A stretch of DNA of 63,588 nt, the filler included. It is 7 parts of 7 records of this genome, joined end to end, with 100 filler letters (N's around TTAATTAATTAA, not from the genome) between each part and the next. Parts side by side here need not be neighbours in the genome. Positions count along the whole stretch, not along the records: positions 1 to 11,013 come from SRR31147125_6155; 6 more parts are not named here. One strand, given 5' to 3'. Numbering within the stretch: the first letter of the stretch is position 1; each line of letters begins with the position of its first letter. Below the pieces are notes generated by a model. That model made no database searches. It saw only the letters and a list, made by a program, of their open reading frames with translations, and was not told where the DNA came from. Both the position numbers and the translations under genes were made by a program. Shown piece by piece: positions 1 through 38,484 of this stretch.

Positions 1-936
1 AAAAAAGAAGTTGATAATATAGATATTATATTAATGAATCAATCGGAATTAACGGTACCATTTTCATTGTTATTAACTAAAATATTTGGAAAAAAAATAC
101 CAATAATTACTTATTTTCATTATATTGCAATTGATTATATGAAAAATCATCAAATTTACTATGATGACAGCTTAAACCACAATAATGCAGCTGAATATAT
201 TTGGAATAGACAGAAAGAAGCATTGTTATATTCTGATTACAGTATTGTAGGAAGTAATTTTGGACTAAATTTGTTAAAAGAGGCAGTCAGTAAAAATATA
301 AAATATAAAATAGCTGTGATACCACCTCCAGTCAAAAAAGAAATTTTTGAATATAACGGTAATTCTGATGATACCAATGAAAAAGTAAGAGTTATTTATA
401 ATCATAGATTGTATAATCACTATGGGGGAATGGATATTTTTGACGTATTAAAAGAATTATCTTTGACTGAAGAGTTTGAAATAATAATTACTGATCCAAC
501 ACATAATAGATCAAAGGAAAGAAATAAGTTAGACAGAAGTGTTAATGATATTAAAAAAGAATTACTGAAATTTGATTTTGTTAAGTTTGAGCACTTGGAA
601 GATCATAATGATTACTTAGAAATGATTTCAAAGTGTGACTTTGGAATTAGTCCTCTTAGAAAAGGAGGTTTATGGAGCATGTCTATAGTTGACATAATGT
701 CAGTTGGAAAACCTGTTTTATCCTATGATTATGGAAGTTATAGAGAAATTGTAGGTGATGAAGACTTATTATTTACCGAGATTGATGAATTTAAAAATAA
801 GTTTGTTAAACTCATACAAGATAAAAATTTCAGAACAATAAAAGGAATAGAATCAAGCAATAAAGTTAAAGAATATTCAAGTGAGAAAATTGGAGAGCAA
901 TTTATGAAAATATTTAGAAAGGTATTAAAAAATTAA
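1..936 (+). CDS. Glycosyltransferase family 4 (GT-B), 5'-truncated at the window edge
   Basis: The frame is open from base 1. The C-terminal GT4-type region reads CDFGISP...WSMSIVDIMSVGKPVLSYDYGSYREIV. Confidence 0.8.
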   Translation, partial: KKEVDNIDIILMNQSELTVPFSLLLTKIFGKKIPIITYFHYIAIDYMKNHQIYYDDSLNHNNAAEYIWNRQKEALLYSDYSIVGSNFGLNLLKEAVSKNIKYKIAVIPPPVKKEIFEYNGNSDDTNEKVRVIYNHRLYNHYGGMDIFDVLKELSLTEEFEIIITDPTHNRSKERNKLDRSVNDIKKELLKFDFVKFEHLEDHNDYLEMISKCDFGISPLRKGGLWSMSIVDIMSVGKPVLSYDYGSYREIVGDEDLLFTEIDEFKNKFVKLIQDKNFRTIKGIESSNKVKEYSSEKIGEQFMKIFRKVLKN

Positions 937-978
937 TTGTTGTGTTTTTCTAGTAGAATGTACTTAGGGGGAATATGA

Positions 979-2340
979 ATGTGTTTAGAAAATAATTTTA
1001 TTAAGGAAGGGAGAGACCTTCACATAAATCATTATGGCGAAAACAGACTTAATTTCGCCTGTATAAGAGCAAGTGGAATAAATCAAACTTTTGTAAATTT
1101 AAATGAATGTTCTAAAAAAGAATTTAATGTAATTGATGCAAGTGGGGGTTACGGCTTTGCCTGTCTTGGCGCTTCTAATTCTGTAATTGAGAACGCGATT
1201 GTTAAAGCTATCAGAGAAGTTGGTTATTCAACTGATGAGATAGCGTCAAAAGAACGTTCAAAATTGCTCAATTTTCTATTTGGGAGAAAAGGGCTTTGGA
1301 TTGAGCGATTTCCACATGGAGAATATCATGTTAGTGGAAGAAATTCAGGTTCTGAAGGGGTTGAATTAGCTCTTATTTTGGCAAAAGAAAATAGAAGTTC
1401 TAATAATAGAAACATTTTAGTTGCCTTTGAAGGAGCATGGCATGGATGGACTAAAGGGTCAACATCATTTTTAGAAAAAAGAGGTAATGATGTTAAGAAA
1501 GAGATTTCTTCATTTAATAAATTAAGTGATATGAAAGTAAAAAACCTTCCATTTGGAAACTTTGAATTTTGTAAAGAATATTTTGAAGAGAACAGTTCTG
1601 AGATTCTTGCAGTAATTTTAGAACCTATTCAAGGTGATGCTGGTGTAATTATTCCACCAGAGGATTTTCTTCGAGATATAGCAAATTTGTGTAAACAGAA
1701 TGATATTATTTTAATAGCAGATGAAATATTAACATTCGCAAGAACTGGTAATTTTTTTGCAATGAATGATGAAAAAGGCATAATTCCTACTGATATAACA
1801 ATTATAGGAAAAGCTCTGGGCATGGGAATTGCTCCTGTTTCTTTAGTTATAGCAAAAAAAATAAAGCCACCAAAGGGAAAAGCTATTGCGACTTCGGACC
1901 TTAGACCTTTTACATGCTCGGTCATTTACGAAGGAATCAATTATATTGTTCAGGAAAATTTATTAAAAAATTCTTGCGTTCTAGGAAAATATTTAATGAA
2001 ACTATTAAAAAGTGAATTGGTAGAGAAGTATCCAAAACTCTATAAAAATGTTAGAGGTAAGGGGTTTTTTATTGGAGTGGAACTTACTAAATTATCATCA
2101 AATTATGTTATGGAATTACGAAGAAATTATATAGAAAATGGAGTATATATAGAGTTTCTGATTGGAGTTGGAAAAAAATCAGACAATTCTGATTTTATTT
2201 TTCCGACAATGAGAGTATCACCACCTCTTATTGCAACAAAACAAGATATTGATAATATTGTTTTAGCATTAAAAGGTGGAACGAATTCTTTTATTAACGA
2301 ATATTTTTCTAATTCAAAGTTAGTTGATAAAAATGAATAA
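979..2340 (+). CDS. Class III PLP-dependent aminotransferase
   Basis: Motifs NSGSEGVELAL, FEGAWHG, LEPIQGDAG, LIADEILT, GKALG (PLP lysine) and VRGKG. GGGGGA RBS upstream. Confidence 0.9.
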   Translation: MCLENNFIKEGRDLHINHYGENRLNFACIRASGINQTFVNLNECSKKEFNVIDASGGYGFACLGASNSVIENAIVKAIREVGYSTDEIASKERSKLLNFLFGRKGLWIERFPHGEYHVSGRNSGSEGVELALILAKENRSSNNRNILVAFEGAWHGWTKGSTSFLEKRGNDVKKEISSFNKLSDMKVKNLPFGNFEFCKEYFEENSSEILAVILEPIQGDAGVIIPPEDFLRDIANLCKQNDIILIADEILTFARTGNFFAMNDEKGIIPTDITIIGKALGMGIAPVSLVIAKKIKPPKGKAIATSDLRPFTCSVIYEGINYIVQENLLKNSCVLGKYLMKLLKSELVEKYPKLYKNVRGKGFFIGVELTKLSSNYVMELRRNYIENGVYIEFLIGVGKKSDNSDFIFPTMRVSPPLIATKQDIDNIVLALKGGTNSFINEYFSNSKLVDKNE

Positions 2341-3934
2341 TCATAAAGTTAGAGTTATTCACCCAGGAAATAGAGGAGAACATTGGTGTGATATAGAGAG
2401 CTCAAGAAATTTTGTTTATTATGATGATGAAAATATAAATACTATAAAAAATTTTGATGAATATATAGATCAATTATTAAAATTCCCTATTGATTTTTTT
2501 TATGATAAAAAACTAATTATTAAAGAAAAATTTTATATTTTTAATAAAAATGGAATTGAAATTTGCATTTTCTCAGAACTTCCTGGTTGGTTAGCTGTAT
2601 CAAATAGTTTTGAACTCATTATGAAGCAGATTGTAAAAGGTACAACAACAACTAAAATAGAATCAAACTTTAGTTTTGAAAAAAATCAACTCCATTTATT
2701 ACTTGTAACACTTTATATAAAAGGAGTTTTATTAGTTGAAGATAAATTATTTAATAAAGACTTTAGTTATCCAATTTTATATCAAGCTGATGATTTGGCA
2801 TTGGTTGAAATAACTAAACAGTGTAATCTCAGATGTAGTCATTGCTTTAATAGCTCAGGAATTAAACTTAAAAATGAACTTAATTTCAATGAAATTAAAA
2901 TGATGATTGATAAAATTGAAAAATGCAATTCACCCTTGAAATCAAATAAAAATATAGTTTTCTCAGGTGGGGAGCCATTATGCAGAAAAGACATTTTAGA
3001 TATAATTGAATATGCAAATATAAAAGGTTATAGAGTTGAAATTCTAACAAATGGATTGTTGATAAATGATAAATTAATTAAGAGCTTTCAAAATTATGAA
3101 GTACAGATAAGAGTATCACTTGATGGTTGCACTAAAGAAAGTCACGAAAAAATTAGGGGACAGAATACTTTTGATAAAACAGTAAAAACTATTAAAAAAC
3201 TATTAAGTTTTGGTATAAAAACAGGAATTACAACGGTTATATCTAAGTATAATTACTTAGAACTGGATAAAATTGTTTCATTTTTAAAAATTTTAAAAGT
3301 TGATTTCTTTACTTTTATTGTTGTTAATGAACTAGGTAAAGCAATAGATTCAAAACTAATTAACTATAAAATTTCAAAAATTTATTCTGACCTTTTCTTC
3401 TTAGCTGAAACAAATGAAGATTTTTATTCCATGATGAGTAATTCTACATTAGCTAATATAATCGCATGCAATATTGTGGGGCTATATTTTGATAGCTGTG
3501 GATTAGGAAAACATAAAGATTTTTACATACAATCTAATGGAGATATTTTTCCATGTAGAGCAACCATACTAGAGGAATTTAAACTTGGAAATATCAAATT
3601 TGACGATATTTCGACATCAAGTTTTTCAACTTCTATTGAATTACTTGAATTGAATAACCTTAATGTAAACAATCTTAATTACAAATGTTCTAACTGCAAA
3701 GTTAGATACTGGTGTGGTGGAGACTGTAGGGGTGAAGTATATCAAACAATAGGAGATATTAAATCTCCTACGAATCATTGTAAAAGAATTATTGAAGGAA
3801 TTGAAGCCTCTTTGTATTTATGTGCAAAAAATCCAAAGATGTATTTCGAAAAAAGCGAAATTTTTTATAAAATAACGCAGCGAATAGATTCTATTACAAA
3901 AGCTTTAATTGATGTGAATAGGAATGAGGTGTGA
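2324..3934 (+). CDS. Radical SAM/SPASM protein with an N-terminal RRE/PqqD-like extension
   Basis: CNLRCSHC, SGGEP and SLDG motifs. C-terminal SPASM cysteines: CGLG..GDIFPC..CSNCKVRYWCGGDC..HC. The likely real start is the ATG at 2333. Confidence 0.9.
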   Translation: MIKMNNHKVRVIHPGNRGEHWCDIESSRNFVYYDDENINTIKNFDEYIDQLLKFPIDFFYDKKLIIKEKFYIFNKNGIEICIFSELPGWLAVSNSFELIMKQIVKGTTTTKIESNFSFEKNQLHLLLVTLYIKGVLLVEDKLFNKDFSYPILYQADDLALVEITKQCNLRCSHCFNSSGIKLKNELNFNEIKMMIDKIEKCNSPLKSNKNIVFSGGEPLCRKDILDIIEYANIKGYRVEILTNGLLINDKLIKSFQNYEVQIRVSLDGCTKESHEKIRGQNTFDKTVKTIKKLLSFGIKTGITTVISKYNYLELDKIVSFLKILKVDFFTFIVVNELGKAIDSKLINYKISKIYSDLFFLAETNEDFYSMMSNSTLANIIACNIVGLYFDSCGLGKHKDFYIQSNGDIFPCRATILEEFKLGNIKFDDISTSSFSTSIELLELNNLNVNNLNYKCSNCKVRYWCGGDCRGEVYQTIGDIKSPTNHCKRIIEGIEASLYLCAKNPKMYFEKSEIFYKITQRIDSITKALIDVNRNEV

Positions 3935-5151
3935 AAGTGAATTTTAAAACTACTAAATTATTATTAATAAGTACTTTAGAGTGCAATGGTGAATTAATTG
4001 AACCAATTGGCTTAGAGTATTTAGCCTCATATTTGATAGAAAATAATTATAAAACGGAAATTCTATGTACTTTTCCAAATACTGACAGTATCAATTTAAT
4101 AATTAATCAAATAGTTAAATGCAAACCATCTGTAATTGGTTTTTCCATTTGGGACATTAATTCTGAATTTGTAATAAGAACTTCAAAGGAAATAAAAGCA
4201 ATTTTTCCTGAATTAATAATTATAGTTGGAGGGTATAAGGCAAAATTTCTTTCAAAAACAAGTATTTCAGCAATTGACTACTTTATTATTGGAGAAGGCG
4301 AAAATGCAACTTTAAAGTTACTTAATAGTATTGAAAATAAGAATATTTTAAAAGGTAAAGTAATTAAATCCAAGCCATTACTGAAATTAGATAATCTTCC
4401 ATTTCCAGCAAGAGAATTAGTTGACTATGACAAATTCCCATTGATACCTGAATTAAAAAATTCAAAAAATCTTACTAATCATTATACATATATTTTTACA
4501 TATAGAGGATGCCCTAATTTTTGTTCATTTTGCGCAGTACATGAAGTTTTTGGAACTAAAATAAGAAAGCGATCAATAGAGAATATTGTTGATGAATTAA
4601 CTGAGATATATGAAAAATACCAAATTAATACTTTTATTAATGAAGAAGATTTACTTTTTACTGATAAAAAGAGAGTAATAAACTTGTGTAATGCTATTAA
4701 AAATTCTAAATATGACTTTGTTTGGACTTGCTCAGGAGCGGTTAGATATATAGATGAAGAAATTCTTCTTGCATTAAAAGAAGCCGGGTGTATTTATGTT
4801 TTTATAGGTGCAATATCTGGTTCTGATGAAGTTTTGAGGGAAGCAAAAGCAGGTTTTAGAGTAAAGGATTTATTATTAGCTCTTCAAACTGCAAAAAATG
4901 TAGGAATGCCTATATCTTCTTCATTTATGATAGGATTTCCAAATGAAACAGAAGAAAGCTTAACAGAAACTTTAAACTTTATTACTGATTATAGAGATTT
5001 ATTTTGGGATGTTGGAATTGGAATTGTAACCCCCTATACAGGAACCCCCATAATGAAGGAAAAATTAGAAAATAGCACAATTGATGACAAAACCTTAGAA
5101 AACTTTATTAATAGAAACAAAAGCTATTTGATTTTACATTTTAAGAATTAA
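3931..5151 (+). CDS. B12-binding radical SAM protein (class B methyltransferase-like)
   Basis: N-terminal PIGLEYLASYL, IVGG and GEGE B12-domain motifs, then RGCPNFCSFC and FMIGFPNET. The GTG start overlaps the upstream TGA. Confidence 0.9.
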   Translation: MKVNFKTTKLLLISTLECNGELIEPIGLEYLASYLIENNYKTEILCTFPNTDSINLIINQIVKCKPSVIGFSIWDINSEFVIRTSKEIKAIFPELIIIVGGYKAKFLSKTSISAIDYFIIGEGENATLKLLNSIENKNILKGKVIKSKPLLKLDNLPFPARELVDYDKFPLIPELKNSKNLTNHYTYIFTYRGCPNFCSFCAVHEVFGTKIRKRSIENIVDELTEIYEKYQINTFINEEDLLFTDKKRVINLCNAIKNSKYDFVWTCSGAVRYIDEEILLALKEAGCIYVFIGAISGSDEVLREAKAGFRVKDLLLALQTAKNVGMPISSSFMIGFPNETEESLTETLNFITDYRDLFWDVGIGIVTPYTGTPIMKEKLENSTIDDKTLENFINRNKSYLILHFKN

Positions 5152-5210
5152 TTTACAATGTAAACTTTAGAACAATATTCCTAACAAATTAATAAAAAAG
5201 GGGTGATAAT

Positions 5211-6911
5211 ATGGTTATATTAGGTATTAATGGCTATTCAATGTGGTCCTTTCATGATCCTTCAGCTTGTTTAATTATTGACGGAAAAGTAATTTCATTT
5301 GTAGAAGAGGAACGTTTATGTAGAATAAAACACGCAGTAAATAAATCTCCAGTTTTATCAGTCAAAGCTTGCTTAAAAAGCGGAAAAATTAAGTGGGATG
5401 AAGTCGATTATTTAGCTGTTGGTTGGGATATACCTTCTTTTGTAAGTTATTCATCTATAAAAATGACAACAAATGAAATAATTGACTCACTACTGAAGTC
5501 AATTAAAGCTCCTGCTTCTTTTTCAAAGAAAAAAGTAATATTTGTTCCTCATCACGTTTCCCATGCTTGGAGTGGAATTTGCCTTGCTCAAAACAAGCAA
5601 TCATTAGTTCTTGTTATTGATGGCCAAGGTGAAAAAGATTCAATTTCAGTTTTTCGGCATAAAAAAGGAAAATGCTCATTAGTATCAAGCTTTGATGCAA
5701 GTTATTCTTTGGGATATTTTTATGAAGCAGCAGCATGGTTTACTGGTCTAGGGCTTTCAGGATCAGGAAAATTAATGGGATTAGCCTCATATGGAACTTA
5801 TACAGATAAATTGGCATTTAATATAAATATGTCTAAAGCATTTGAAACTCCTATTCCTAGTAACTTTATTAAACAAAGAAAGAGAAAAAAAGACATGGAT
5901 CATTCAATAAGAATCGTTAATGACTTTTGGATTCCTCATTTCTCTAATTTATTTCCACAGTTAAATTGGTTCGATTTACCAAAAAAACTACCGTTTGATC
6001 TAAGAAATAATCTAGAAAACATAGAAAATGCTATTTTAGTTGCTAGTTATACTCAGCTTAGCACTGAAAAAGCTACACTAAGTTTAATTAATAGCTACTT
6101 ACAAAGTGACGATGAAGCAATAATTTTAGCAGGCGGAGTAGCTCAAAACTGTAAACTAAATGGATTAATTAACGAGAGCTTTTCCAATAAAGATGTCTAT
6201 ATTCAAAGTGCTAGTAATGACGCAGGAACAGCATTAGGTGCAGCAGTTTATTTAGCAAATGAACTAGGTGAAAAAAATATTGATTTATCAACTTTTCCTT
6301 ATTTAGGAGAACTGTATTGTAATAAGGATGTAGAATTTTATCTAAAATCAACAAATATTGAATATAAAAAATTGAATAACAAATTTAAAACAGCGGCAAA
6401 ACTAATCAATAATGATAAAATCATCGGTTGGCATCAAGGAAAATCAGAAATAGGATCAAGAGCGCTTGGAGGTAGAAGTATTCTAGCCAGAGCAGATTCA
6501 AAACTAATACGAGATAAAGTAAACTTAGATATTAAAAAAAGAGAGAAATGGCGACCGTTAGCACCAATGATAAAAAATGAATTTGGAAGTATATTTTTTG
6601 AAAATTATACAGAATCTCCATATATGTTAAAAGCTTTTTATTGTACAGATAAAGGAAGAGAGATATTGCAAGGAACAAATCATGTTGATGGCTCTTCAAG
6701 ACCACAAAGTATATGTAAAAATAATGATTCTATTCAAATTAGTAATCTTCTTGAAGAAGTTTATGCTCAATCAGGAATTCCCGCAATTCTGAATACATCT
6801 TTTAATCTAGCTGGTCAACCAATCGTATACTCGCCTAAAGATGCTATCGATACTTTCATAAATTCAAAATTAGATGCACTAATAATTAATGATTATTTAA
6901 TAAGTCGATAA
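5211..6911 (+). CDS. Carbamoyltransferase, NodU/CmcH/TobZ family
   Basis: Motifs HDPSACL, EEERLCRIKH, HHVSHA, IDGQGE, GKLMGLASYG, GGVAQN, DAGTALGA, RALGGRSILA, HVDGSSRPQ and LNTSFN. Confidence 0.95.
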   Translation: MVILGINGYSMWSFHDPSACLIIDGKVISFVEEERLCRIKHAVNKSPVLSVKACLKSGKIKWDEVDYLAVGWDIPSFVSYSSIKMTTNEIIDSLLKSIKAPASFSKKKVIFVPHHVSHAWSGICLAQNKQSLVLVIDGQGEKDSISVFRHKKGKCSLVSSFDASYSLGYFYEAAAWFTGLGLSGSGKLMGLASYGTYTDKLAFNINMSKAFETPIPSNFIKQRKRKKDMDHSIRIVNDFWIPHFSNLFPQLNWFDLPKKLPFDLRNNLENIENAILVASYTQLSTEKATLSLINSYLQSDDEAIILAGGVAQNCKLNGLINESFSNKDVYIQSASNDAGTALGAAVYLANELGEKNIDLSTFPYLGELYCNKDVEFYLKSTNIEYKKLNNKFKTAAKLINNDKIIGWHQGKSEIGSRALGGRSILARADSKLIRDKVNLDIKKREKWRPLAPMIKNEFGSIFFENYTESPYMLKAFYCTDKGREILQGTNHVDGSSRPQSICKNNDSIQISNLLEEVYAQSGIPAILNTSFNLAGQPIVYSPKDAIDTFINSKLDALIINDYLISR

Positions 6912-7004
6912 AAATTGATTTAATATGATGTCTGATTATAGTTACTATTGTATTTAGGCATAGATATAACATTTATAACTAAACTTATTTAAGGAGAGAA
7001 TAAT

Positions 7005-7662
7005 TTGAATAATTTAAAGGTTTCAATTATTATGCCTACTTTTATGCATGAAAAATTCATTCATAGAGCAATAGAAAGTGTACTTGCGCAAGAGTATAAG
7101 AATTGGGAATTAATAATTGTAAATGATGGTTCTTCTGATAATACAGAACAAATGGTATGTAAATATCAGAAGGAATGTAGAATAAAATATTATAGTAAAA
7201 AAAATGAAGGGGTTAGTAAAGCCAGAAATTATGCGATTGATAAAGCAACTGGAGAATATATTTCATATTTAGATTCAGATGATATTTATCTGCCAAATCA
7301 CTTAAAACAAAAAATAAACCAATTAGAAAGATCAAATTCTGATTTTGTTTATGGACCTATTTATATTGATAAAAAAGATAATAACTCAATATTTTATCCA
7401 AATTTTTCAAAATCAAAGGAGGGTTGTATAATGCCATTAATGGTTTTACATAAAAAAATGCTTTGATTTATCCAAGTTCAATCCAAATATACTATTTGAA
7501 GAAGATTTAGAGCTTTTTTTAAAATTTAAAAAAGAATTTAAAGTTACACAGGTTAATGAACCAACTGCAATATATAACATTCATAATTTATCAATTCATA
7601 AAATATATGAAAGAGAAGGTGAAGAAGGAGTTTTAAAATTCCGTTTAATGAATGCTAAATAA
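7005..7662 (+). CDS. Glycosyltransferase family 2, frameshifted at the A7 run 7452-7458
   Basis: Motifs VSIIMP, VNDGSSD, ARN and YLDSDD. Another frame continues CFDLSKFNPNILFEEDLELF...RLMNAK* to a stop at 7660-7662 that overlaps the next start. Confidence 0.85.
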
Positions 7663-8676
7663 TAAAAAATTCATGTTAAATTTGACTATCGAAGATATGT
7701 TATGTAATTTAGAATGTAAATACTGCTGGATTTCAGAATCTACTTTTAAAGTAAAAAGAATTGAAAACATAATAAAGAAAGGAGAAAGTGTTAATTATTC
7801 TATAGAATCACTTCTTAAAAAAATTGATCGAATTCTTTTGAACGAAGAAGCAACAGTTCTAAAATTATCTGGGGGAGAAATTTTTTTAATTCCAGAAATT
7901 TTTGATATCGTAAAAAAATATGAAGAGAAATTTAAATTAATTCAAATTTTAACTAATGGTACCTTGTTAAATAAAAAGATACTAGATTCTTTTGATAATG
8001 AAAAATATTGCTTTCAAATTTCATTAGATGGGGATAGTCTATTTCTTAATTCATATAGATTTGGTAAAAACAAGACTTTGCTAAGTAAATTACTAAACAA
8101 TATTGCCTATTTATATAGCAAAAATTACAATATTGAGATTAACTCAGTAGTAACACCAATTAATAAATTGGAAGTTTTTCAATTTATTAACAGATTTAAA
8201 AATCAATACCCTAAAATAACTATTTTACCATTTCCAGCAAGATTTACAAATGAAAAATACCTCATTAGAAATTTTTCAGAAAAGGAAAAAAGCAAAATAT
8301 TTTTAAATGAGCATACTAATATTCCTTATATAAAAGAAATGATTAAGTTAAAAAATGAAGGTATTAAAAATTACACTTGTTACCTAGATTTATTAATAAA
8401 AACTATTGATGAAAATGGTGATATATATTACTGTCCTTGTGGTAATATTAGTTATTTGGGAAATATTTTTTCGAAAGAAAAAAAGTATACGATGAAAAAG
8501 AAATTAAATCGAAAAAACTAGAAAAATGCAATAATTGTTTTACAAATTTTGATATAATAAATTTATTTTTTAATGATCTTATAGATTTTAAGGAATTAAA
8601 AAAAACTGGAATTTTTAAAAATAGAGAAGTTGCAGAAGAAATATTAAAACAAAAATATACTTTATTAAATATTTAG
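7652..8676 (+). CDS. Radical SAM protein with a Twitch/SPASM-like tail, frameshifted at the A7 run 8478-8484
   Basis: CNLECKYC, SGGE, TNG, SLDG and CYL..GDIYYCPC motifs. The shifted frame adds CNNCFTNFDIINLFF...LLNI*, with the stop at 8674-8676. Confidence 0.85.
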
Positions 8677-8732
8677 TTAAAAGAATTATAAACTTTTATG
8701 AAATATTCTAAGAAATATGAAGGGAGAAAGTA

Positions 8733-9242
8733 ATGAAAAATGTAACAGTTTTTGGCTCGTCAATGTTTGATGTTAAAGACAATAATTATGAAATGGGAGT
8801 TAAGATTGGGAAACTCCTAGCTGAAAAAAAATATACTGTAAAATGTGGTGGTTATTATGGTTCAATGGAAGCTGTTGCTAAAGGTGTAAGTGAAAATGGT
8901 GGAGAATGTATTGGGATTACAAATAAATCATTTGATCCTAAAATAGCAAATAAATACATTTCATTAGAGAAAAAAGGTGAGAATCTTTTCAAAAGACTTG
9001 AATACCTAGTAGAAGACTCGGATATATTTATTGTTCAAATTGGTAGTTTTGGAACCTTAACTGAACTATTTCTTGTGTGGTGCTTAGCTTATACAAAAAC
9101 TATCTTAAATAAAAAAATACTTTTAATAGGAAAAGAATGGACGCAAATCATAGAAGCATTAAAGGCATTACCAATACAAAGTGAAGATTTCAACTATGTA
9201 AAAGTTATTGAAAGTATTAATGAATTAGAAAAAGAATTATAA
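8733..9242 (+). CDS. LOG-family nucleotide phosphoribohydrolase (lysine-decarboxylase-like fold)
   Basis: Motifs VTVFGSS, CGGYYGSMEAVAKG, RLEYL..SD and GSFGTLTELF (variant of PGGxGTxxE). Confidence 0.85.
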   Translation: MKNVTVFGSSMFDVKDNNYEMGVKIGKLLAEKKYTVKCGGYYGSMEAVAKGVSENGGECIGITNKSFDPKIANKYISLEKKGENLFKRLEYLVEDSDIFIVQIGSFGTLTELFLVWCLAYTKTILNKKILLIGKEWTQIIEALKALPIQSEDFNYVKVIESINELEKEL

Positions 9243-9323
9243 TATTGGCGTAGAGAGATCATCCGTGTCCTGAGGGGCAGGAAAATTTAAGTTTGGATTA
9301 AGCTTATTGCCCCATAAACAGAG

Positions 9324-9455
9324 ATGCTCTCCCTAGGCCTAGTTGATGGATTTGTAGTTTCACCAAACGTTAAAATAAAAGATGTAAAAACAATTAATCA
9401 AAAGTTTGAATTTTCAGATCATCATCCTGTTAAAGGAAGTTTTCAAATAGAATAA
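9324..9455 (+). pseudogene. 3' remnant of an endonuclease/exonuclease/phosphatase (EEP) family gene
   Basis: Translates as ..VDGFVVSPNVKIKDVKTINQKFEFSDHHPVKGSFQIE*. These are the C-terminal EEP motifs (D..V.S and SDH.PV); no N-terminal part is present. Confidence 0.7.
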
Positions 9456-9868
9456 TAAAATCTTTAACAGTTGAAAAGATATATAATCACTTTATGTTTG
9501 ATTCTGCTCAAAACATTTTAAAGAAATTTTAGATAAAGAAAATTCAATTTAAAGTATTGCCTGACCTCCGGCTCTTTTCTATTTTTAAAGAGATGATTTT
9601 TTAATAAAATAACAAGTATGTTTCACAAGCTAAGTGCTAAAAACTGTCACAAGCTCAATTTCAGCTAAAAATGTCCGTTGAAAAAAGAATTTTGTCTAAA
9701 TTTTGTCAGAAAATATAGAATAAACTTCATTATACTATATGTATACAATTTTAAACTCTTAATAAAGCTAATAAAATCAGCATTATGCACTTAGTGAATT
9801 TTTTCTAATTGATTATTAAGATTTGAAAATTACACTTGGAAAATCAGATAAAAGTTTTCAGAATTACA

Positions 9869-9897
9869 TTGATTGTTAAATAGTTTGATAGTATAAT
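9869..9897 (+). promoter_or_regulatory. Sigma70-type promoter with no downstream ORF
   Basis: TTGATT-17 nt-TATAAT. Confidence 0.6.
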
Positions 9898-9943
9898 GTT
9901 TTTGAAAGGTGTAACGGGAATTCCTTTTTACCACTGTGAAACG

Positions 9944-9980
9944 AGAAAGAGAGTAAGAATTAGATCTGCTCTCTTTTTCT
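9944..9980 (+). terminator. Intrinsic terminator closing a candidate short RNA
   Basis: AAAGAGAGTA/TGCTCTCTTT stem followed by T residues. Confidence 0.5.
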
Positions 9981-9998
9981 GTTCTTCAGATAGGATCT

Positions 9999-10024
9999 AA
10001 AAAAGCGAGGAATTAACCTCGCTT
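9999..10024 (-). terminator. Intrinsic terminator downstream of the Rpn-like gene
   Basis: AAGCGAGG-6 nt-CCTCGCTT stem with a T-run on the minus strand. Confidence 0.75.
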
Positions 10025-10036
10025 AAAATTTTATTA

Positions 10037-10234
10037 TTAACTTTCTTTTATTGGTGAAGAAGCAAGTTTTCCTATTTCTTCTACACTTAACCCTGTTATA
10101 GCAGATATTGTTTTTATATCTATTCCCTGTTTAAGTGAATTTCTTGCTACTTTTAACTTTTCCTCTTTCATCCCCTCTTCTCGTGCTATCGCTCTTGTTT
10201 CTTGTACATCGTAATGGACTGCCATTTCAAACAT
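10037..10234 (-). CDS. Candidate internally initiated RpnS-like small protein (65 aa)
   Basis: In-frame ATG at 10234 (MFEMAVHYDV...) with GGGAGG 9 nt upstream. Confidence 0.55.
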   Translation of the reverse strand: MFEMAVHYDVQETRAIAREEGMKEEKLKVARNSLKQGIDIKTISAITGLSVEEIGKLASSPIKES

Positions 10235-10639
10235 TTTCTCCAGCCTCCCTTCATAAATATTCTCAATAATTTCCTTAATCTCCTCTTCAGGAGTATTTAT
10301 TCTGCTCAATAGTAGTTTCATTGCTTCTGCAATTTTTTCCAGTTCTTTTCTACTACTCACGTTTTCCTTTAGTTTATCCCAGTATTCACATTTAATTGAT
10401 TCTATTTTTTTTAAATCTGCCGGTCTTTTTATTTTATCAATTATAAATAAAGCTGATAATAAGTCTTGGTGTGATTGTAACTCTTCAAATGATATATTGT
10501 TTAAATTAATCAGTTCATACTTAAAATCTGGAATAAAAACAATACGTTTCAGTATATCAATTATAGGACTTCTATATTTTAAAATAGTGTAAATTGGTAA
10601 ACATAAGTTGTATTGACACTTTATAGATGCTTGTTTCAC
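10037..10639 (-). pseudogene. Rpn (recombination-promoting nuclease/putative transposase) family, N-terminally truncated
   Basis: Contains FIPDFKYELINLN and the C-terminal EEGMKEEKLKVARNSLKQGIDIKTISAITGLSVEEI typical of Rpn proteins. The PD-(D/E)XK N-terminal region is missing. Confidence 0.7.
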
Positions 10640-10730
10640 TACACTTCTTATAAGTTAATATGTCAATTATTATACTATAGTTTAATACTTGACACTTTTA
10701 CTTTGATTTTATGTTTTAAATATTCTTATT

Positions 10731-13124: not shown

Positions 13125-13492
13125 TTATTTACCGATAATCATTTTTGCTCCTGCAATCAACATTAAAACACCAAATGCTTTTTTGAGTGTTTTTGCAGGT
13201 AAATTTACAGATAATAATGAACCCAGGTAATTCCCGATTACAAATGCAAGAAGCAATAGGAAAACATATTTAAAATTAACATACCCTTTTTGTGGTAATT
13301 TATTACTGAAAGCAACATAACAGGAAAAACCAGAACCCCGAGACTTGTCCCTTGCGCCTGATGTTGAGAAAAACCAAATATAAAAACCAGGGCGGGTACT
13401 AAAATTATTCCGCCGCCAACACCAAGACCACCTGCAATAAAACCAGCAGCAATCCCGACGAGTAATAGAAGTAAGATGTCGTTAATTGTCAT
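13125..13492 (-). CDS. TauE/SafE (TSUP) family membrane protein, frameshifted near 13287-13291
   Basis: Motifs GGLGVGGGIILVP and QHQAQGTSL. The shifted frame continues GYVNFKYVFLL...KMIIGK*. Confidence 0.85.
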
Positions 13493-17017: not shown

Positions 17018-17663
17018 ATGAGGCGATTAGGCGTATTAATCGTTATGTTAAGTGCGATTTTGATTTATACCCATGGACAACAAAAAGGGCCAAATATCTC
17101 TTTTAATACAGTTAAGCACGATTTTGGTAAAATAAAAGAAAATGGTGGTAAGGTTGTGTATAAATTTGAGTTTACCAATACAGGAAATCAACCTTTAATA
17201 GTAAATAATGTTAAACCATCATGTGGGTGTACAACACCACAGTGGAGCAGGCAGCCGGTTTTGCCAGGTGCAAAGGGGTATATAGAAGCAGAATTTGATC
17301 CTAAAGGCAGAAAGGGGCCATTTAACAAATCAATTTCGGTAACTACGAATGGAAACACAAGTTCTTCTGTATTGCACATTACTGGAAATGTATTAGAAGG
17401 AGAGAAGACACTTGAAGAAATCTATCGGTATAAAATGGGTGATATCCGTTTAATGCGCAGAAATGTATATTTTTCCCGCATAGAACCAGATCAAATTAAA
17501 AGTGAAACATTGGATATTGTCAATCCGTCAGATAAAAATGTGACTGTTCAATTTAAAGGTGTGCCAGATCATATTAAAATTACGGTAGAACCTTCAACAC
17601 TTAAGCCAAATGAAAAAGGCCAAATAAAAGCAACATACGATGCTTCTAAAGTTAATGATTGGG
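17018..17663 (+). CDS. DUF1573 domain protein, 3'-truncated
   Basis: Motifs HDFGKI, FTNTGNQPL and SCGCT; Ig-like repeats. Confidence 0.85.
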
Positions 17664-17763
17664 NNNNNNNNNNNNNNNNNNNNNNNNNNNNNNNNNNNNN
17701 NNNNNNNTTAATTAATTAANNNNNNNNNNNNNNNNNNNNNNNNNNNNNNNNNNNNNNNNNNNN
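17664..17763. other. Artificial contig linker
   Basis: N-run/TTAATTAATTAA/N-run. Confidence 0.98.
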
Positions 17764-33170: not shown

Positions 33171-34213
33171 ATGGAAAAGATAAATATAACAGGCAAAACA
33201 ATAGACGAACTTGAAGCATTTGCAAAAGAGATCGGAGAGAAATCTTTTCGAGGGCGTCAACTATTCAATTGGATATACGTTAAAAAAGCGGCGCAATTTA
33301 CCGAAATGACAGATTTGTCAAAGGCGCTGCGTGAAAAGCTCCAAAACAGAGCTGATATCGGGTGTTTGCAGCTAGTAAAGAAAAATCCTCAGATGGCTCC
33401 TCATCGGCAAAATATATATTCCGATTACATGATGGCCATGTTATTGAAAGTGTTTATATTTCCGAATCAGGACGACGAACGCTATGCCTTTCATGCCAGG
33501 TTGGCTGTGCTTTAAAATGCGCATTTTGCGCTACCGGCCGTCTCGGATTGAAAAGAAATTTAAGCACAGGAGAAATTATCGATCAGGTTCTTTACATAGA
33601 GCGTGATATTGGGCATGAGTTAACAAATATCGTATTTATGGGAATGGGAGAACCTTTTAAAAATTATGATCATGTTATCAAAGCAGCGAACCTGATCAAG
33701 CATCCGGATGGTATTGCTATTGGCTACAGACGGATAGTTATATCAACAGCCGGAATCGTGCCGGCTATTTACCGTTTTGCGGATGAAGGACACCGTTTCA
33801 AGCTTGCAGTTTCATTACATTCGGCGGTGAATGAGGATCGGCAAAAGATTATGCCGATCAGTACAAAATATACCGTGGAAAAGCTTATCGAAGCGGTCAC
33901 ATATTACATTCAAAAATCGGGTCGTCGACCCACTTTTGAATATGTGATAATGGCTGGAGTGAATGATCGAATGCAAGATGCGGATGCGTTGCGAAAATTA
34001 GTCCGGGGGCTGGAATGTAAAGTGAACCTGATTCCGTACAATCCAACTGTGAGTGAATTTGATCGACCACGTCCTGAAAGTGTAGATCAATTTGCCAGAT
34101 GGCTTTTCCCGATTCGAGCGCCAGTTTCTGTTAGATGGAGTAAAGGCGTCGATATTGATGCTGCGTGTGGCCAATTAGCTGGCGACTATATGGAATCCGA
34201 AGCGATCTCCTGA
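33171..34213 (+). CDS. rlmN: 23S rRNA/tRNA m2A methyltransferase RlmN, frameshifted near 33378
   Basis: The N-terminal FRGRQLFNWIY ORF joins the second ORF carrying CLSCQVGCALKCAFCATG, FMGMGEP, SLH, NLIPYN and AACGQL. Confidence 0.92.
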
Positions 34214-34425: not shown

Positions 34426-34525
34426 NNNNNNNNNNNNNNNNNNNNNNNNNNNNNNNNNNNNNNNNNNNNTTAATTAATTAANNNNNNNNNNNNNNNNNNN
34501 NNNNNNNNNNNNNNNNNNNNNNNNN
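34426..34525. other. Artificial contig linker
   Basis: N-run/TTAATTAATTAA/N-run. Confidence 0.98.
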
Positions 34526-35151
34526 CCCTTTCCCTTAATATTTTCTTTTTTTGGATTTATTTGTGTTGAAATGTTGTCCCAAATAACAGAGTAGTCATTT
34601 GTTTCAAAATTTTTAGTAATTTCAATTCTAATGCCATCAATAAATTCATGTTCTTGTGTTTCTGCTGATATATTAAGTAAAATAGCTTTTGGAATTACTG
34701 TTTTTGAGAAAACGTTTGGCTCAGTTGGTGCTGTTGTACTAAGCTCTACCTTATAATCAAAAGAATAGATTAAATCCTTCATTAACCCATTGTCTATGTT
34801 AGGAATTAGATCTCTAACCAAAAGTTCCCAAGGATATGGGAACCTTTTATTTTGTGCATCATAAAAACTTTTTCGATTTAGATTAAAAGAGAATTCAAAA
34901 GTAATTGGCTTTTCAATATTACAATTATGTATGGTGTTAGAAAATGTACCCAAATGTAATATTCTACCATTCAATAATAAGGTTTGTTCTAAATTCCTAC
35001 TTTCAAGAGTCTGCTTCCATAACAACAAACTATGAAGCAAAGAGCTCTTTCCACTACTATTAGTACCACAAAATAGCGTAATCGGTTTAAGTAATATTTC
35101 ATCTGTATCAACAAAAGCTTTAAAGTTTTTTAATCTCATTTTTGTTTGCAT
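34526..35151 (-). CDS. AAA/ABC-type ATPase (DUF3696/AAA_15-like), 3'-truncated
   Basis: LKNFKAF followed by PITLFCGTNSSGKSS (Walker A) and LLLWKQT. Confidence 0.8.
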
Positions 35152-35618
35152 AACAAATCCCTTTTTTACAGGTATGCAAAAATAAATATATTTTCAATAT
35201 ATTTATTTTGCTTTACTCTTTTTTGCAATTAATTTACCATTTGTTCGCAATAAAGAATTTTAATTGGTATTATTTTTTATCCTTATCAATACATGTTGAT
35301 CTTCGGATTTCTGATCTAAAACTCCTAAAGAAACAGTTCGTGAACTAATAAATGATAACAACTACTCAATAATTCATTAAAAGAAAAAAGAGAAATACTT
35401 TTTGTTCTTAATTATCATTAACTTCAAGACTCATCAATAATTATATCATGTAAAAAAATATCGAGACAGTAAATATTTATAATTCTCCCCTGGTTTGATG
35501 GTATAATTAGTTTTTTTCCAAGTTCTCTATGATCATTTCCTAAATAACATACTGAAAGTTTGAAGCAACATTTTTGAGCATTGAATCAAAAATTGTTAAA
35601 TACTTAAAAAACAGTATA

Positions 35619-36752
35619 TTACTCAATCTCAAAAGTTCTTATGAAACCTTCTCTTATATTATTATAATCATAAAGAGTCATAGGAAGATCCGCCTTCGAT
35701 AATCTTGCTCTTCCTATCTCAATAGCAACGGAAACTGGCACAGCTGGAAATAAATGAATTCGAGATTTATCACTATTAATATACTTTATTTCACTAAGAG
35801 CTTTTTTATAAGTAATCCGAAAATCGTCTAATTGACCTTTGGTCTGTATTGCCTCACTATGTGGCTCTTCTAAACAAATTCCCCATATCGGAACATCAGG
35901 GCCTAATATTTCTTTTACTTTACTTTCTTCAATTTTTTGTGATAAGGAAATAACTAAGGCAACATCTTTACACACTTGCTTGTCTCTAGTAAGTATATAT
36001 TTATAATCTTGTTGCAGTGGCTTTCTCTTCCAATTCCAATTTGGAGGAGATCGATGTAGTTGATAGAGTTCTGCTGTCGGAATATCAGTTAACAAATAAC
36101 CAAGATAAATCAAAAGAGGTTGTGGGGCAAAACCAAAAATTGATAAATGGGGAACATTCCCATCTTTTAATTTGAATCTTAATTTTTGCTTATATAGAGC
36201 TTCAAGATTCTTCTTTTCAATTATCCAAAATTCTTCATTATCATCAGTAAAAGAGGAATTCTTAAGACTTAATTCAATTGCCTCAGTACTAGCTGGGTAG
36301 TAACCGTTCTCAGCTACTGCAAGTAGGGCTTTATCCATGCATAAGGAGGAACCTTGCATTCCTATATTGGCTCCATATAGCACAATATAGGTTTTCATAT
36401 TTTCTTTAATACCAGTAAGACATTCTATTCTATCCTCATGTTTTTTTTTATAATTTTGTAAAATTTCAACAGAATATTTATTTCTGTAGTCTCCATCAAT
36501 CAACCGATGATGTTGATCACAGAGTAACATCAGATTTTCATACTCTATTGCTTTTTCAGGAGAAAGAATATCATTTCCTCTTGGACCATTTGGGGAATCG
36601 GCAATAATGTGTCCTATATAAGATATATTATATTCATTTTTACTTAGCTCATCCCTGTATAAAATTTTATTACATCCAGGAAATTCACATCTTCCAGCAG
36701 TTTTAGCCCAAAGTCTCTTTTGGACTTTATCTGGTATATTTGATTTTGACAT
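35619..36752 (-). CDS. CBASS effector, HNH endonuclease-SAVED (Cap5-like)
   Basis: N-terminal GRCEFPGC..GHII..GPRG..NLMLLCDQHHRLID. C-terminal SAVED with FGFAPQPLLIYLG, LYQLHR, IHLFPAVPVS.AIEIG and LYDY. Confidence 0.9.
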   Translation of the reverse strand: MSKSNIPDKVQKRLWAKTAGRCEFPGCNKILYRDELSKNEYNISYIGHIIADSPNGPRGNDILSPEKAIEYENLMLLCDQHHRLIDGDYRNKYSVEILQNYKKKHEDRIECLTGIKENMKTYIVLYGANIGMQGSSLCMDKALLAVAENGYYPASTEAIELSLKNSSFTDDNEEFWIIEKKNLEALYKQKLRFKLKDGNVPHLSIFGFAPQPLLIYLGYLLTDIPTAELYQLHRSPPNWNWKRKPLQQDYKYILTRDKQVCKDVALVISLSQKIEESKVKEILGPDVPIWGICLEEPHSEAIQTKGQLDDFRITYKKALSEIKYINSDKSRIHLFPAVPVSVAIEIGRARLSKADLPMTLYDYNNIREGFIRTFEIE

Positions 36753-36763
36753 TTTGCCCTACT

Positions 36764-38299: not shown

Positions 38300-38389
38300 A
38301 GAACCTCCAATTTTTAAACATTTTGCATAATTACAAAACTATATTATATTCTTAATTTATACATATCCTAATATTTTTTATTCGATATT

Positions 38390-38418
38390 AATATATATAC
38401 AACTATTTTTAAAGTCAA
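38390..38418 (-). promoter_or_regulatory. Sigma70 promoter for the CBASS operon
   Basis: TTGACT-17 nt-TATATT on the minus strand; GGAGG RBS at 38304-38308. Confidence 0.6.
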
Positions 38419-38479: not shown

Positions 38480-38484
38480 GAATC

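Follow-up and report, generated by a model that had tools for sequence, protein, structure and literature searches.

A candidate horizontally acquired, AT-rich radical SAM operon that may act on a peptide- or carrier-tethered substrate

Eight genes, all on the plus strand, occupy positions 1-9242 of the window, by which we mean the whole stretch of DNA analysed (63,588 nucleotides, filler included). They are closely spaced or overlapping, as the original prediction had described, with intergenic gaps of 42, -17, -4, 59, 93, 185, and 211 nt in gene order, the negative values being overlaps of 17 nt between the aminotransferase and SPASM genes and of 4 nt between the SPASM and B12 genes. Pfam and NCBIfam searches returned the predicted gene families, except that the label "Twitch-like" for the small radical SAM enzyme did not hold (48.6 bits against a cut-off of 170). 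The same searches found no PKS, NRPS, transporter, or LPS gene in 1-9242, in agreement with the prediction, and the GT4 gene is open at its 5' end, where the window does cut off the 5' part of the operon. The features are as follows:

1-936, plus strand: GT4-type glycosyltransferase, 5'-open (Pfam Glycos_transf_1, E 2.6e-9)
979-2340, plus strand: class III PLP aminotransferase, AmcC-like (E 8e-51)
2324-3934, plus strand: radical SAM + SPASM enzyme with a 160-aa N-terminal extension
3931-5151, plus strand: B12-binding + radical SAM enzyme (PF02310 + PF04055)
5211-6911, plus strand: TobZ/NodU-type carbamoyltransferase with both N and C domains (PF02543 + PF16861)
7005-7466 (7005-7661 with the +1 frame), plus strand: GT2 glycosyltransferase, apparently broken (PF00535, E 1.9e-37)
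7652-8521, plus strand: small radical SAM enzyme (PF04055, E 2e-13)
8733-9242, plus strand: LOG/SLOG-family Rossmann protein (PF18306, 65.7 bits; PF03641, 53.4 bits)
9243-10639, no strand: island edge, non-coding or decayed sequence with a short ORF, a hairpin, and an Rpn-family fragment

All eight genes have a low GC3 (0.156-0.183), unlike most genes beyond 11.9 kb, where 20 of 22 comparison genes lie at 0.22-0.40; the SAVED gene of the comparison set is at 0.21, and two high-GC genes reach 0.63-0.69. This argues that the eight genes form one acquired island, and positions 1-9242 are best explained as the 3' portion of a biosynthetic operon that is very AT-rich and was acquired horizontally. 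The LOG gene, which shares the low GC3 of the other seven (0.171) and lies 211 nt downstream of the preceding gene, is read as closing the operon, possibly under a promoter of its own. Beyond it, the island edge holds a 43-aa ORF (9324-9455) and a hairpin (10003-10024), followed by an Rpn-family nuclease/transposase fragment on the minus strand at 10037-10639 (GC3 0.209). We see no gene for a precursor peptide, a protease, an exporter, or a carrier protein in 1-10040, and ORF scans (at least 40 aa over 1-10700, at least 20 aa over 8400-10040) gave no convincing candidate. A gene of one of these kinds would have to lie upstream of the window. Rnf, flavorubredoxin, and LutB are present, in line with the predicted, probably anaerobic host.

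The GT4 remnant (311 aa, cut by the window edge; GC3 0.183) is very divergent and matched no PDB chain at E ≤ 0.01. The GT2 ORF encodes 153 aa covering positions 1-128 of the 168 in the PF00535 profile and ends immediately downstream of an A7 run at 7452-7458. A +1 frame, open from 7441, then runs on for 72 codons to a TAA at 7659-7661, overlapping the ATG of the next gene; neither Pfam nor a tblastn search of plasmids gave a match for this second piece. As judged from the sequence, the GT2 gene is apparently broken by a candidate frameshift at the A7 run. Its best NCBIfam matches are the surface-glycan enzymes TuaG, WcaA, PglI, and EpsE, and chondroitin synthase and PglI are among its best matches in the PDB.

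The SPASM enzyme carries a CX3CX2C motif at residue 167 and seven C-terminal cysteines that are invariant across eight sequences; its gene may alternatively start at the ATG at 2333. Within the N-terminal extension, residues 13-28 form an invariant motif and residues 64-140 or so an RRE-like domain. In the AlphaFold2 model, this region forms three strands (70-75, 78-83, and 88-93) and three helices (96-104, 109-115, and 122-132), with a mean pLDDT per ten-residue block of 83-93 over residues 41-140, except for 67 in block 81-90. The model thus suggests that the domain has the strand-strand-strand-helix-helix-helix topology of a RiPP recognition element, with weak sequence support. In a full-length hhalign comparison, residues 67-141 fall on the region annotated as PqqD in four maturases that bear this domain, and the N-terminal domain alone keeps the same register, at a probability of 4-8% (P 0.004-0.009, 38 columns). 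Pfam PqqD matched none of the eight SPASM family members. The best family is the sactipeptide maturase StsB (169.5 bits over residues 64-500; cut-off 625), and the top Foldseek matches are the RiPP maturases TigE, SkfB, SuiB, and CteB, with column counts that include gaps and so do not in themselves prove a superposition of the RRE domains. With StsB, CteB, SuiB, and TigE, the enzyme shares the domain order of an N-terminal three-strand, three-helix domain, a radical SAM core, and a SPASM domain with seven cysteines; it differs in having about 60 extra N-terminal residues, in the 13-28 motif, which is absent from all compared proteins, in the silence of the PqqD model, and in the lack of a visible precursor gene. 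There is also some likeness to mycofactocin biosynthesis, which yields a glycosylated small molecule derived from a peptide and in which the SPASM enzyme MftC acts on a peptide and the GT2 enzyme MftF glycosylates the released product: the MftC and MftF models score 118.9 and 42.9 bits, but both miss their cut-offs (265 and 280), and no equivalents of MftA, B, D, or E were seen.

The B12 enzyme is compact (406 aa), with a CX3CX2C motif at residue 194. Its closest PDB sequences are AprD4 (83 bits) and then MgmA (9ccb, 81 bits); Foldseek also ranks AprD4 first, with MiaB, TsrM, OxsB, and MgmA close behind, and among NCBIfam models the RiPP enzyme ApyD scores best (129.5 bits). The enzyme thus resembles AprD4, the apramycin 1,2-diol dehydratase (454 aa), and MgmA, the methyl-coenzyme M reductase glutamine methylase (417 aa), about equally; both are near it in size, with TM-scores of 0.53-0.60 and identities of 18-19%. 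As these two differ in chemistry and in substrate (sugar versus protein), the resemblance does not allow a reaction type to be inferred. The carbamoyltransferase aligns collinearly over its full length with TobZ, the tobramycin O-carbamoyltransferase (3ven, 301 bits, residues 2-565 to 8-571), with its HHVSH (residue 114) and DGQGE (residue 137) aligned to the HHxxH and DGQGE motifs of TobZ, but it sits in a small subfamily of its own. NodU-like carbamoyltransferases also work in RiPP pathways, as StdF (PMC13174530) and CgnI (PMC10070186) do, and RREs fused to carbamoyltransferases and to GT2 enzymes are mentioned in PMC12710340.

The aminotransferase, which has a GK lysine motif at residue 275, scores far higher on AmcC of cispentacin/amipurimycin biosynthesis (NCBIfam NF058664) than on any other family, at 555.4 bits against 154 for the runner-up, although it stays below the 600-bit cut-off. 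Its closest representative (52% identical) scores 692 bits on AmcC, above the cut-off, and the best solved relative among its 23 PDB hits is putrescine aminotransferase. As described in part of PMC10698177, AmcC aminates an ACP-bound ketone, and the amc operon includes ACP, thioesterase, and type II PKS-like genes as neighbours, whereas a GT4 gene and a SPASM radical SAM gene flank the aminotransferase here. The small radical SAM enzyme (289 aa; CX3CX2C at residue 18, three C-terminal cysteines) has no significant PDB match, and its best NCBIfam scores are all far below the cut-offs (viperin 56, PapB 56, and HpnH 44.6 bits, besides Twitch). Its look-alikes in the ESM Atlas are mostly viral radical SAM clusters, which offers a lead. 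The LOG protein lies above the Pfam cut-offs but reaches 72 bits against NCBIfam cut-offs of 96-107; it matches TT1887 (1weh, 74 bits) and LOG (5wq3, 67.5 bits) in the PDB and is a putative nucleotide N-glycosidase.

Relatives of the core enzymes are few. Full-length relatives number seven for the SPASM enzyme and four for the B12 enzyme, and the carbamoyltransferase subfamily comprises ten proteins (439-609 bits), set apart from a large background that starts at 371 bits; NodU-type carbamoyltransferases as a whole account for 6580 proteins at E ≤ 1e-20 among 8000 candidates scored. Core genes were found together on six other contigs, hits being placed on the same contig by identical nucleotide size, source, and contig count. 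The SPASM, B12, and carbamoyltransferase genes share a contig of 14,873 nt; SPASM and B12 genes occur together on contigs of 8118 and 8055 nt, SPASM and carbamoyltransferase genes on contigs of 111,236 and 51,562 nt, and B12 and carbamoyltransferase genes on one of 35,739 nt. We read the SPASM enzyme with its RRE-like domain, the compact B12-domain enzyme, and the TobZ-type carbamoyltransferase as the conserved core of the operon. PADLOC recognised no known system, giving generic radical SAM hits alone and staying silent for seven of the ten proteins scanned, and a literature search on this enzyme combination returned nothing relevant. The view of the locus as an unassigned radical-SAM-rich pathway is thereby borne out.

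The original prediction had proposed a carbamoylated amino-sugar or nucleoside product, by analogy to aminoglycoside and peptidyl-nucleoside pathways. The TobZ analogy stands, and the locus does share a carbamoyltransferase, a B12 radical SAM enzyme, a class III transaminase, and a GT4 enzyme with the tobramycin, apramycin, and butirosin tailoring sets; what differs is the AmcC-like transaminase, the peptide-maturase-like SPASM enzyme, and the absence from view of a 2-deoxy-scyllo-inosose synthase or sugar transaminase. The further analogies are not supported in the form proposed. A NeoB-type aminotransferase is contradicted by the AmcC match and by the absence of any neamine or neomycin transaminase from the 23 PDB hits, AprD4 and MgmA are closer to the B12 enzyme than a GenK-type methylase, no MilB/BlsM-type chain occurs among the 16 PDB hits of the LOG protein, which is an ordinary LOG/TT1887-type protein, and BlsE is a weak match to the SPASM enzyme (40 bits by sequence, rank 10 in Foldseek). 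A free, carbamoylated and C-methylated molecule of amino-sugar, aminocyclitol, or nucleoside type, made by aminoglycoside, pactamycin, or blasticidin logic, is possible but on the whole doubtful. A radical SAM dehydrogenase and the transaminase would install the amine, the TobZ-like enzyme would carbamoylate, and the glycosyltransferases would join the units. TobZ as the best solved carbamoyltransferase relative, AprD4, which acts on paromamine, as the top sequence and structure match of the B12 enzyme, the presence of BlsE among the SPASM matches, and two glycosyltransferases beside a LOG-type N-glycosidase all fit such a product, and radical SAM routes from hexoses to cyclitols are proposed for pactamycin and the BHT cyclitol ether in a section of PMC9092360. 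Against this, AprD4 has no clear lead over MgmA and ApyD among the matches of the B12 enzyme, the transaminase is not of the sugar/neamine type, the SPASM enzyme has an RRE-like domain and a peptide maturase as its best family, the LOG protein is generic and 211 nt away from the operon body, and no sugar-nucleotide, cyclase, resistance, or export gene is visible.

The operon might instead belong, as a variable module, to a locus for glycans or glycolipids of the cell surface (LPS, capsule, S-layer, or flagellin glycan), where it would add amino, carbamoyl, and methyl groups. The GT2 matches, the very wide distribution of NodU-type carbamoyltransferases, and the low-GC island agree with this, and a break at a homopolymer tract in a glycosyltransferase gene is typical of variable surface loci. 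We nevertheless consider it unlikely, as no flippase, polymerase, initiating transferase, or NDP-sugar gene occurs in 1-10.6 kb, the nearest Wzx-like gene lies 10 kb off on the opposite strand with a core-like composition, and the extreme rarity of the core trio contrasts with the abundance of glycan modules; to our knowledge, AmcC-like class III transaminases and RRE-like SPASM enzymes are unusual in glycan loci. The interrupted GT2 frame could also mark a decaying, non-functional remnant of an acquired cluster, with non-coding or fragmentary sequence and an Rpn-family fragment downstream and a position at the contig end. Such decay is improbable, since the seven other ORFs are intact and full-length against their families (GT4 being cut by the window edge), the SPASM and B12 enzymes retain the invariant residues of their families, and a difference in one A run may stem from the assembly. 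Two further readings have very little in their favour. One follows the adenosyl-radical addition logic of hopanoid side-chain biosynthesis, with an enzyme set parallel to HpnH, G, O, I, and J: the small radical SAM enzyme would add a 5'-deoxyadenosyl group to an acceptor, LOG would remove adenine, the transaminase would aminate the ribose-derived aldehyde, and the GT2 and B12 enzymes would elaborate the product. The NCBIfam scores for HpnH (44.6 bits), HpnJ (110 bits), and HpnR (93 bits), however, fall far below the cut-offs of 225, 578, and 650, with other families equal or better, no squalene-hopene cyclase occurs in the window, and the SPASM enzyme and carbamoyltransferase are left unexplained; HpnJ, on which the parallel draws, is treated in part of PMC9092360. 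A system for nucleotide or nucleic-acid hypermodification or for anti-phage defence, likewise very improbable, would accord with pVip models matching the SPASM (93 bits) and small radical SAM (65 bits) enzymes, the viral look-alikes of the latter, the nucleotide binding of LOG/SLOG proteins, and a CBASS system elsewhere in the window, but the PADLOC matches reflect the generic radical SAM core, and no gene for phage structure, a kinase, or DNA handling lies next to the operon.

The RRE-like domain, together with the affinities to StsB, ApyD, MgmA, and AmcC, leads us to lean towards a peptide- or carrier-bound substrate, which we regard as no less likely than a free amino-sugar or nucleoside. 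Pulling the other way are the silence of the Pfam PqqD model, the low probability of the hhalign comparison for the N-terminal domain alone, the lack of a visible precursor, protease, exporter, or carrier gene in 1-10040, TobZ, which acts on an aminoglycoside, the first structural rank of AprD4, and the surface-glycan matches of GT2; as GT2 seems broken, the pathway may also be decaying. On such a tethered substrate, one radical SAM enzyme could abstract a hydrogen atom to give a cross-link or a carbonyl, and the AmcC-like transaminase would convert a carbonyl to an amine, the amino donor probably being ornithine or lysine as for AmcC. Like TobZ, the carbamoyltransferase would use carbamoyl phosphate and ATP to form carbamoyl-adenylate and would then pass the carbamoyl to a hydroxyl or amino group. 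The B12-domain enzyme may methylate an unactivated carbon or dehydrate as AprD4 does, a sugar could be added by GT4 and, if it is intact in vivo, by GT2, and LOG might supply or remove a base or be a mere passenger. Both the order and the chemistry of these steps are inferred. In summary, our tentative preference, held at low confidence, is that the operon encodes an uncharacterised anaerobic tailoring pathway that would act not on a free sugar but on a substrate tethered to a peptide or small carrier protein, whether RiPP-like or assembled on a scaffold or carrier.

An ORF scan with Pfam and NCBIfam searches confirmed the gene content given in the original prediction for this radical-SAM-rich operon, namely eight plus-strand ORFs with the families assigned to them and no PKS, NRPS, transporter or LPS gene within the operon region. 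The families of the genes listed below were assigned with Pfam and NCBIfam.

Genes of the operon (positions along the whole stretch)
1-936, plus strand, GT4 glycosyltransferase, open at its 5' end
979-2340, plus strand, class III aminotransferase
2324-3934, plus strand, radical SAM and SPASM protein (the SPASM enzyme)
3931-5151, plus strand, B12-binding and radical SAM protein (the B12 enzyme)
5211-6911, plus strand, carbamoyltransferase, with both N and C domains
7005-7466, plus strand, GT2 glycosyltransferase
7652-8521, plus strand, small radical SAM protein
8733-9242, plus strand, LOG/SLOG protein

The intergenic spacings are, in gene order, 42, -17, -4, 59, 93, 185 and 211 nt, and because of the overlaps of 17 and 4 nt the aminotransferase, SPASM and B12 genes are likely to be translationally coupled. 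No terminator-like site lies between the plus-strand operon genes; terminator-like sites numbered 6 against 2.9 ± 1.8 in shuffles, and promoter-like sites were not enriched (77 versus 70.0 ± 7.6). GC content is 0.255-0.291 across the first 10 kb compared with 0.294-0.534 beyond 12 kb. All eight operon genes have a GC3 of 0.156-0.183, whereas beyond 11.9 kb 20 of 22 measured genes have 0.22-0.40. The eight genes, LOG included, thus form a single compositional island. It ends in non-coding sequence followed by an Rpn-family fragment at 10037-10639, which together with the next ORF has a GC3 of 0.21-0.22. Elsewhere, a SAVED-domain gene has a GC3 of 0.21, and two genes in a high-GC island at 39550-42429 (GC 0.52-0.55, within a window of 34% GC) reach 0.63-0.69; they encode an AraC/PocR-like regulator and a 602-aa ORF without a Pfam or NCBIfam family. 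A 43-aa ORF at 9324-9455 was considered as the C-terminal end of an endonuclease/exonuclease/phosphatase protein, an idea rejected when Pfam gave no match.

The CX3CX2C motif is present in all three radical SAM proteins, at residue 167 of the SPASM enzyme, 194 of the B12 enzyme and 18 of the small enzyme. In the SPASM enzyme it is accompanied by a SPASM domain of about seven cysteines, as in maturases: C392, C411, C455, C458, C464, C468 and C486 are invariant in the eight family sequences, all of which also contain PF13186 (SPASM). The best family is the sactipeptide maturase StsB (169.5 bits, cut-off 625), whose alignment begins at residue 64, about 100 residues ahead of the radical SAM core. 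To this N-terminal region, an AlphaFold2 model built from the eight-sequence alignment (mean pLDDT 63.6, with the SPASM region unreliable) assigns block-mean pLDDT values of 83-93, with one block at 67, over residues 41-140. The predicted fold comprises strands at 70-75, 78-83 and 88-93, then helices at 96-104, 109-115 and 122-132. Three strands followed by three helices is the element order of the PqqD-like RiPP recognition element (RRE). Foldseek placed the RiPP maturases TigE, SkfB, SuiB and CteB at the top, with column counts that include gaps and so are no proof of superposition of the N-terminal domains. Four relatives in which Pfam places PqqD at roughly residues 18-92 served as hhalign templates; at full length, residues 67-141 of the SPASM enzyme aligned to template positions 16-91, in register with PqqD. 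The N-terminal part alone gave a weak alignment (4-8% probability, P 0.004-0.009, 38 columns) in the unchanged register. Pfam PqqD was found in none of the eight family members, nor in residues 1-160 searched alone. Taking the model and the alignments together, an RRE-like domain is on balance the probable prediction for this region. About 40 residues before it, H13, G15, N16, R17, W21, D23 and E25-R28, within the first 60 residues, are invariant in all eight sequences; the model has low confidence over this stretch (residues 13-28, window 2324-2410), which corresponds to no known motif.

The pairing of a B12-binding with a radical SAM domain in the compact, 406-aa B12 enzyme was borne out (PF02310 at 51.9 bits, PF04055 at 84.6 bits). 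Its leading NCBIfam matches all score far under the respective cut-offs, and comprise the RiPP enzyme ApyD (129.5 bits), MJ_1487 (119), the ladderane-lipid type (116), Mcr glutamine methylase (116), HpnJ (110) and AprD4 (99). Among solved chains, AprD4 (83 bits) and 9ccb, which is MgmA (81 bits), are nearest in sequence. By fold, AprD4 again comes first, with MiaB, TsrM, OxsB and MgmA close (TM-scores 0.53-0.60). Such family and model-based fold matches appear to single out neither a reaction type nor a substrate class. AprD4 works without cobalamin, so the fold alone is insufficient to assign cobalamin binding or methyl transfer to the B12 enzyme. For the small enzyme at 7652-8521, the curated model NF033640 lends the label 'Twitch-like' no support, since the protein reaches 48.6 bits where 170 are required, and neither NCBIfam nor the PDB gave a significant assignment. 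Its nearest ESM Atlas clusters are mostly viral radical SAM families (Uroviricota, about 280 aa, score 0.97), a lead with no alignment behind it.

The aminotransferase scores 555.4 bits on the AmcC model (NF058664), below the cut-off of 600, and the next family reaches 154 bits. Its nearest representative relative, P0275, is 52% identical, scores 692 bits on the same model, and is the only one of the 11 nearest representatives scanned to reach the cut-off. The best solved relative is putrescine aminotransferase (114.5 bits); a NeoB-type (neamine) aminotransferase, to which the gene had been likened, is not named among the 23 PDB matches. According to PMC10698177, AmcC aminates an ACP-bound 2-oxocyclopentanecarboxyl group, taking the amine from ornithine or lysine, and its operon includes ACP, thioesterase and type II PKS-like genes, whereas the gene here is flanked by those of GT4 and the SPASM enzyme.

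The carbamoyltransferase contains both PF02543 and PF16861. The proposed analogy with TobZ was upheld, as the two proteins are collinear over the full length (301 bits), and the metal-binding motifs HHxxH and DGQGE of TobZ line up with HHVSH (residue 114) and DGQGE (residue 137) of this protein. It has the features of TobZ, NodU and CmcH carbamoyltransferases, namely the metal-binding motifs and the two domains, a Kae1-like N domain and a YrdC-like C domain.

The remaining genes are less informative. The GT2 ORF has 153 aa, covers Pfam profile positions 1-128 of 168, and terminates just past an A7 run at 7452-7458. The +1 frame has no stop for a further 72 codons, up to the TAA at 7659-7661, which overlaps the ATG of the small radical SAM gene downstream. 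The break coincides with the A7 run and looks like a one-base frameshift, which could reflect phase variation, decay or assembly error; the second piece has no Pfam family and no plasmid match. GT2 resembles surface-glycan GT-A enzymes (NCBIfam, PDB), and for GT4 the PDB gave no match at E ≤ 0.01. The LOG protein scores over the Pfam cut-offs (65.7 and 53.4 bits) and under those of NCBIfam (72 versus 96-107 bits), and resembles TT1887 and type II LOG proteins. The motif of LOG proteins of the cytokinin riboside 5'-monophosphate phosphoribohydrolase type is PGGxGTxxE; the protein reads GSFGTLTE at residue 104, with the proline and one glycine replaced. PADLOC matched three of ten proteins, to generic pVip (93 and 65 bits) and PDC-M51A (40 bits), and found no specific anti-phage system beyond the radical SAM core.

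The core of the cluster stands out as both rare and conserved. In a collection of about 5.8 billion protein clusters, the SPASM, B12 and carbamoyltransferase enzymes have 4 to 10 close relatives each. The SPASM protein has 34 matches at E ≤ 1e-10, only 7 of which span at least 97% of its length (39-56% identity); for the B12 protein, 4 close relatives (46-61% identity, 361-538 bits) come before a fall in score to 175 bits; and the carbamoyltransferase belongs to a subfamily of 10 (439-609 bits) above a large background that starts at 371 bits. For the aminotransferase, 21 representatives were found at E ≤ 1e-30 among 1.84 billion. Because the size of the longest contig per match coincides across the three protein searches, we infer that the core genes co-occur on six other contigs.

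Contigs on which core genes co-occur, from matching numbers
14873-nt contig: SPASM, B12 and carbamoyltransferase, with the same sources and contig counts in the three protein searches
8118-nt contig: SPASM and B12
8055-nt contig: SPASM and B12
111236-nt contig: SPASM and carbamoyltransferase
51562-nt contig: SPASM and carbamoyltransferase
35739-nt contig: B12 and carbamoyltransferase, with a source that names a Magnetospirillum sp. WYHS-4 MAG

A scan of genome contigs with the SPASM alignment matched at least 602 stretches, mostly by the generic radical SAM motif. The 80 loci kept among the listed matches have best-segment identities of 21-37%, and none reaches query residues before 63. In tblastn searches with nine window proteins, none of these 80 loci matched SPASM together with carbamoyltransferase, aminotransferase, GT4 or LOG. 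Neither did tblastn find a close SPASM relative in plasmids or phages (545 plasmid and 38 phage records, all <60% identity), where the best long matches are 23-25% identical.

Outside the operon, the window has the look of a Gram-negative anaerobe's chromosome, with genes for Mla, Rnf, flavorubredoxin, LutB and RuvB. Scans of the window found no rRNA or tRNA gene (Rfam 0, tRNA scan 0), and an exact-match look-up of 10 window proteins in a protein collection returned none. A CBASS-like defence locus occupies 34474-39420. Its SAVED-domain protein (142 bits) is at 35619-36752, beside a CD-NTase-like cyclase at 36764-38299 that ends in a SWIM/SEC-C motif (83 bits, under the cut-off of 150), and the pair is flanked by a fragment of an AAA ATPase and by a protein with a WYL domain. 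A BaiCD/bilirubin-reductase-like Fe-S flavoenzyme on the minus strand at 53945-55938 is divided between two ORFs with 43 nt in common, one at 54781-55938 covering profile positions 1-334 of 642 and the other at 53945-54823 covering 355-641; the cause is either a frameshift or a true split of the gene. The RlmN ORF at 33362-34213 (283 aa, GTG start) aligns only from profile position 73 of 355, and its N-terminus is either absent or encoded upstream in another frame. An 84-aa minus-strand ORF at 13238-13492 covers only positions 1-62 of 237 of the TauE/SafE exporter profile and is likely a gene fragment. The DUF1573 protein at 17018-17719 also matches the OS_HP2 (seleno)protein domain model (60 bits, under the cut-off of 100).

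The cluster is of a familiar sort, a radical-SAM-rich tailoring gene cluster, which is incomplete and has one gene possibly broken. Three readings of its product were weighed. Ranked highest, though still tentative, is that the operon tailors a product held on a peptide or a carrier. Four of the eight proteins lean towards substrates held on a peptide or protein. The signs are StsB and the RRE-like domain for the SPASM enzyme, AmcC for the aminotransferase, ApyD and MgmA for the B12 enzyme and, weakly, PapB (level with viperin) for the small radical SAM enzyme. The literature offers parallels: NodU-type carbamoyltransferases occur in RiPP pathways, with StdF making homocitrulline (PMC13174530) and CgnI taking part in crocagin biosynthesis (PMC10070186); RREs fused to carbamoyltransferases and GT2 enzymes are reported (PMC12710340); and daptide RiPPs are reported to involve class III aminotransferases (PMC10036551). 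What chiefly counts against the peptide or carrier reading is the lack of any visible gene for a precursor, carrier, protease or exporter, with the 5' part of the operon outside the window. No convincing small ORF for a precursor peptide was found at ≥40 aa over 1-10700 or at ≥20 aa over 8400-10040, the region upstream of GT4 being outside the window, and Pfam and NCBIfam revealed no leader peptidase or exporter among the eight genes or downstream, the upstream side again lying outside.

The reading that follows the original prediction, a pathway to a free amino-sugar, aminocyclitol or nucleoside product, ranks next and is unlikely. It draws on the likeness of the carbamoyltransferase to TobZ and of the B12 enzyme to AprD4. 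Among the eight genes there is neither a 2-deoxy-scyllo-inosose synthase nor a DegT-type or neamine-type transaminase, the upstream side being outside the window. The nucleoside variant fared poorly: blasticidin/mildiomycin-type peptidyl nucleoside clusters have a MilB/BlsM-type CMP hydrolase, cytosylglucuronate synthase and a BlsE-type radical SAM decarboxylase, whereas the hydrolase here is of the LOG/TT1887 type, with no CMP hydrolase named among its 16 PDB matches, and BlsE is a weak match of the SPASM enzyme (40 bits, Foldseek rank 10). That the operon is a surface-glycan module is more improbable again. Its glycosyltransferases are glycan-like or uninformative, but surface-glycan assembly genes are missing from 1-10.6 kb, where no flippase or polymerase, initiating transferase or NDP-sugar gene was found (the upstream side lies outside the window). 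A shared chemical logic, drawn from known family chemistry, would fit any of the three, namely radical SAM oxidation followed by transamination and finally carbamoylation.

Returning to a product held on a peptide or carrier, the conserved core, made up of the putatively RRE-bearing SPASM enzyme with its distinctive invariant N-terminal motif, the compact B12 enzyme and the TobZ-like carbamoyltransferase, might define a new class of peptide- or carrier-templated natural products made anaerobically, which we consider doubtful. In such a pathway the AmcC-like transaminase would turn an enzyme-made carbonyl into an amine, carbamoylation of that amine would give a ureido or carbamate, and the product would also be glycosylated. 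No report of this enzyme combination was found in a literature search that covered subscription journals scantily and is therefore no proof of absence; an Omnitrophota preprint that came up has no bearing on this cluster. If the peptide or carrier reading is true, the cassette joins chemistries found together in no literature located: oxidation or cross-linking by radical SAM enzymes, transamination by an enzyme related to one that is known from ACP-bound substrates only, carbamoylation that depends on ATP, B12-type C-H functionalization and glycosylation. A glycan decoration module or a decaying remnant would be of no more than local interest. With so few close relatives per enzyme, the rare core marks a small, definable family of clusters to mine and express.
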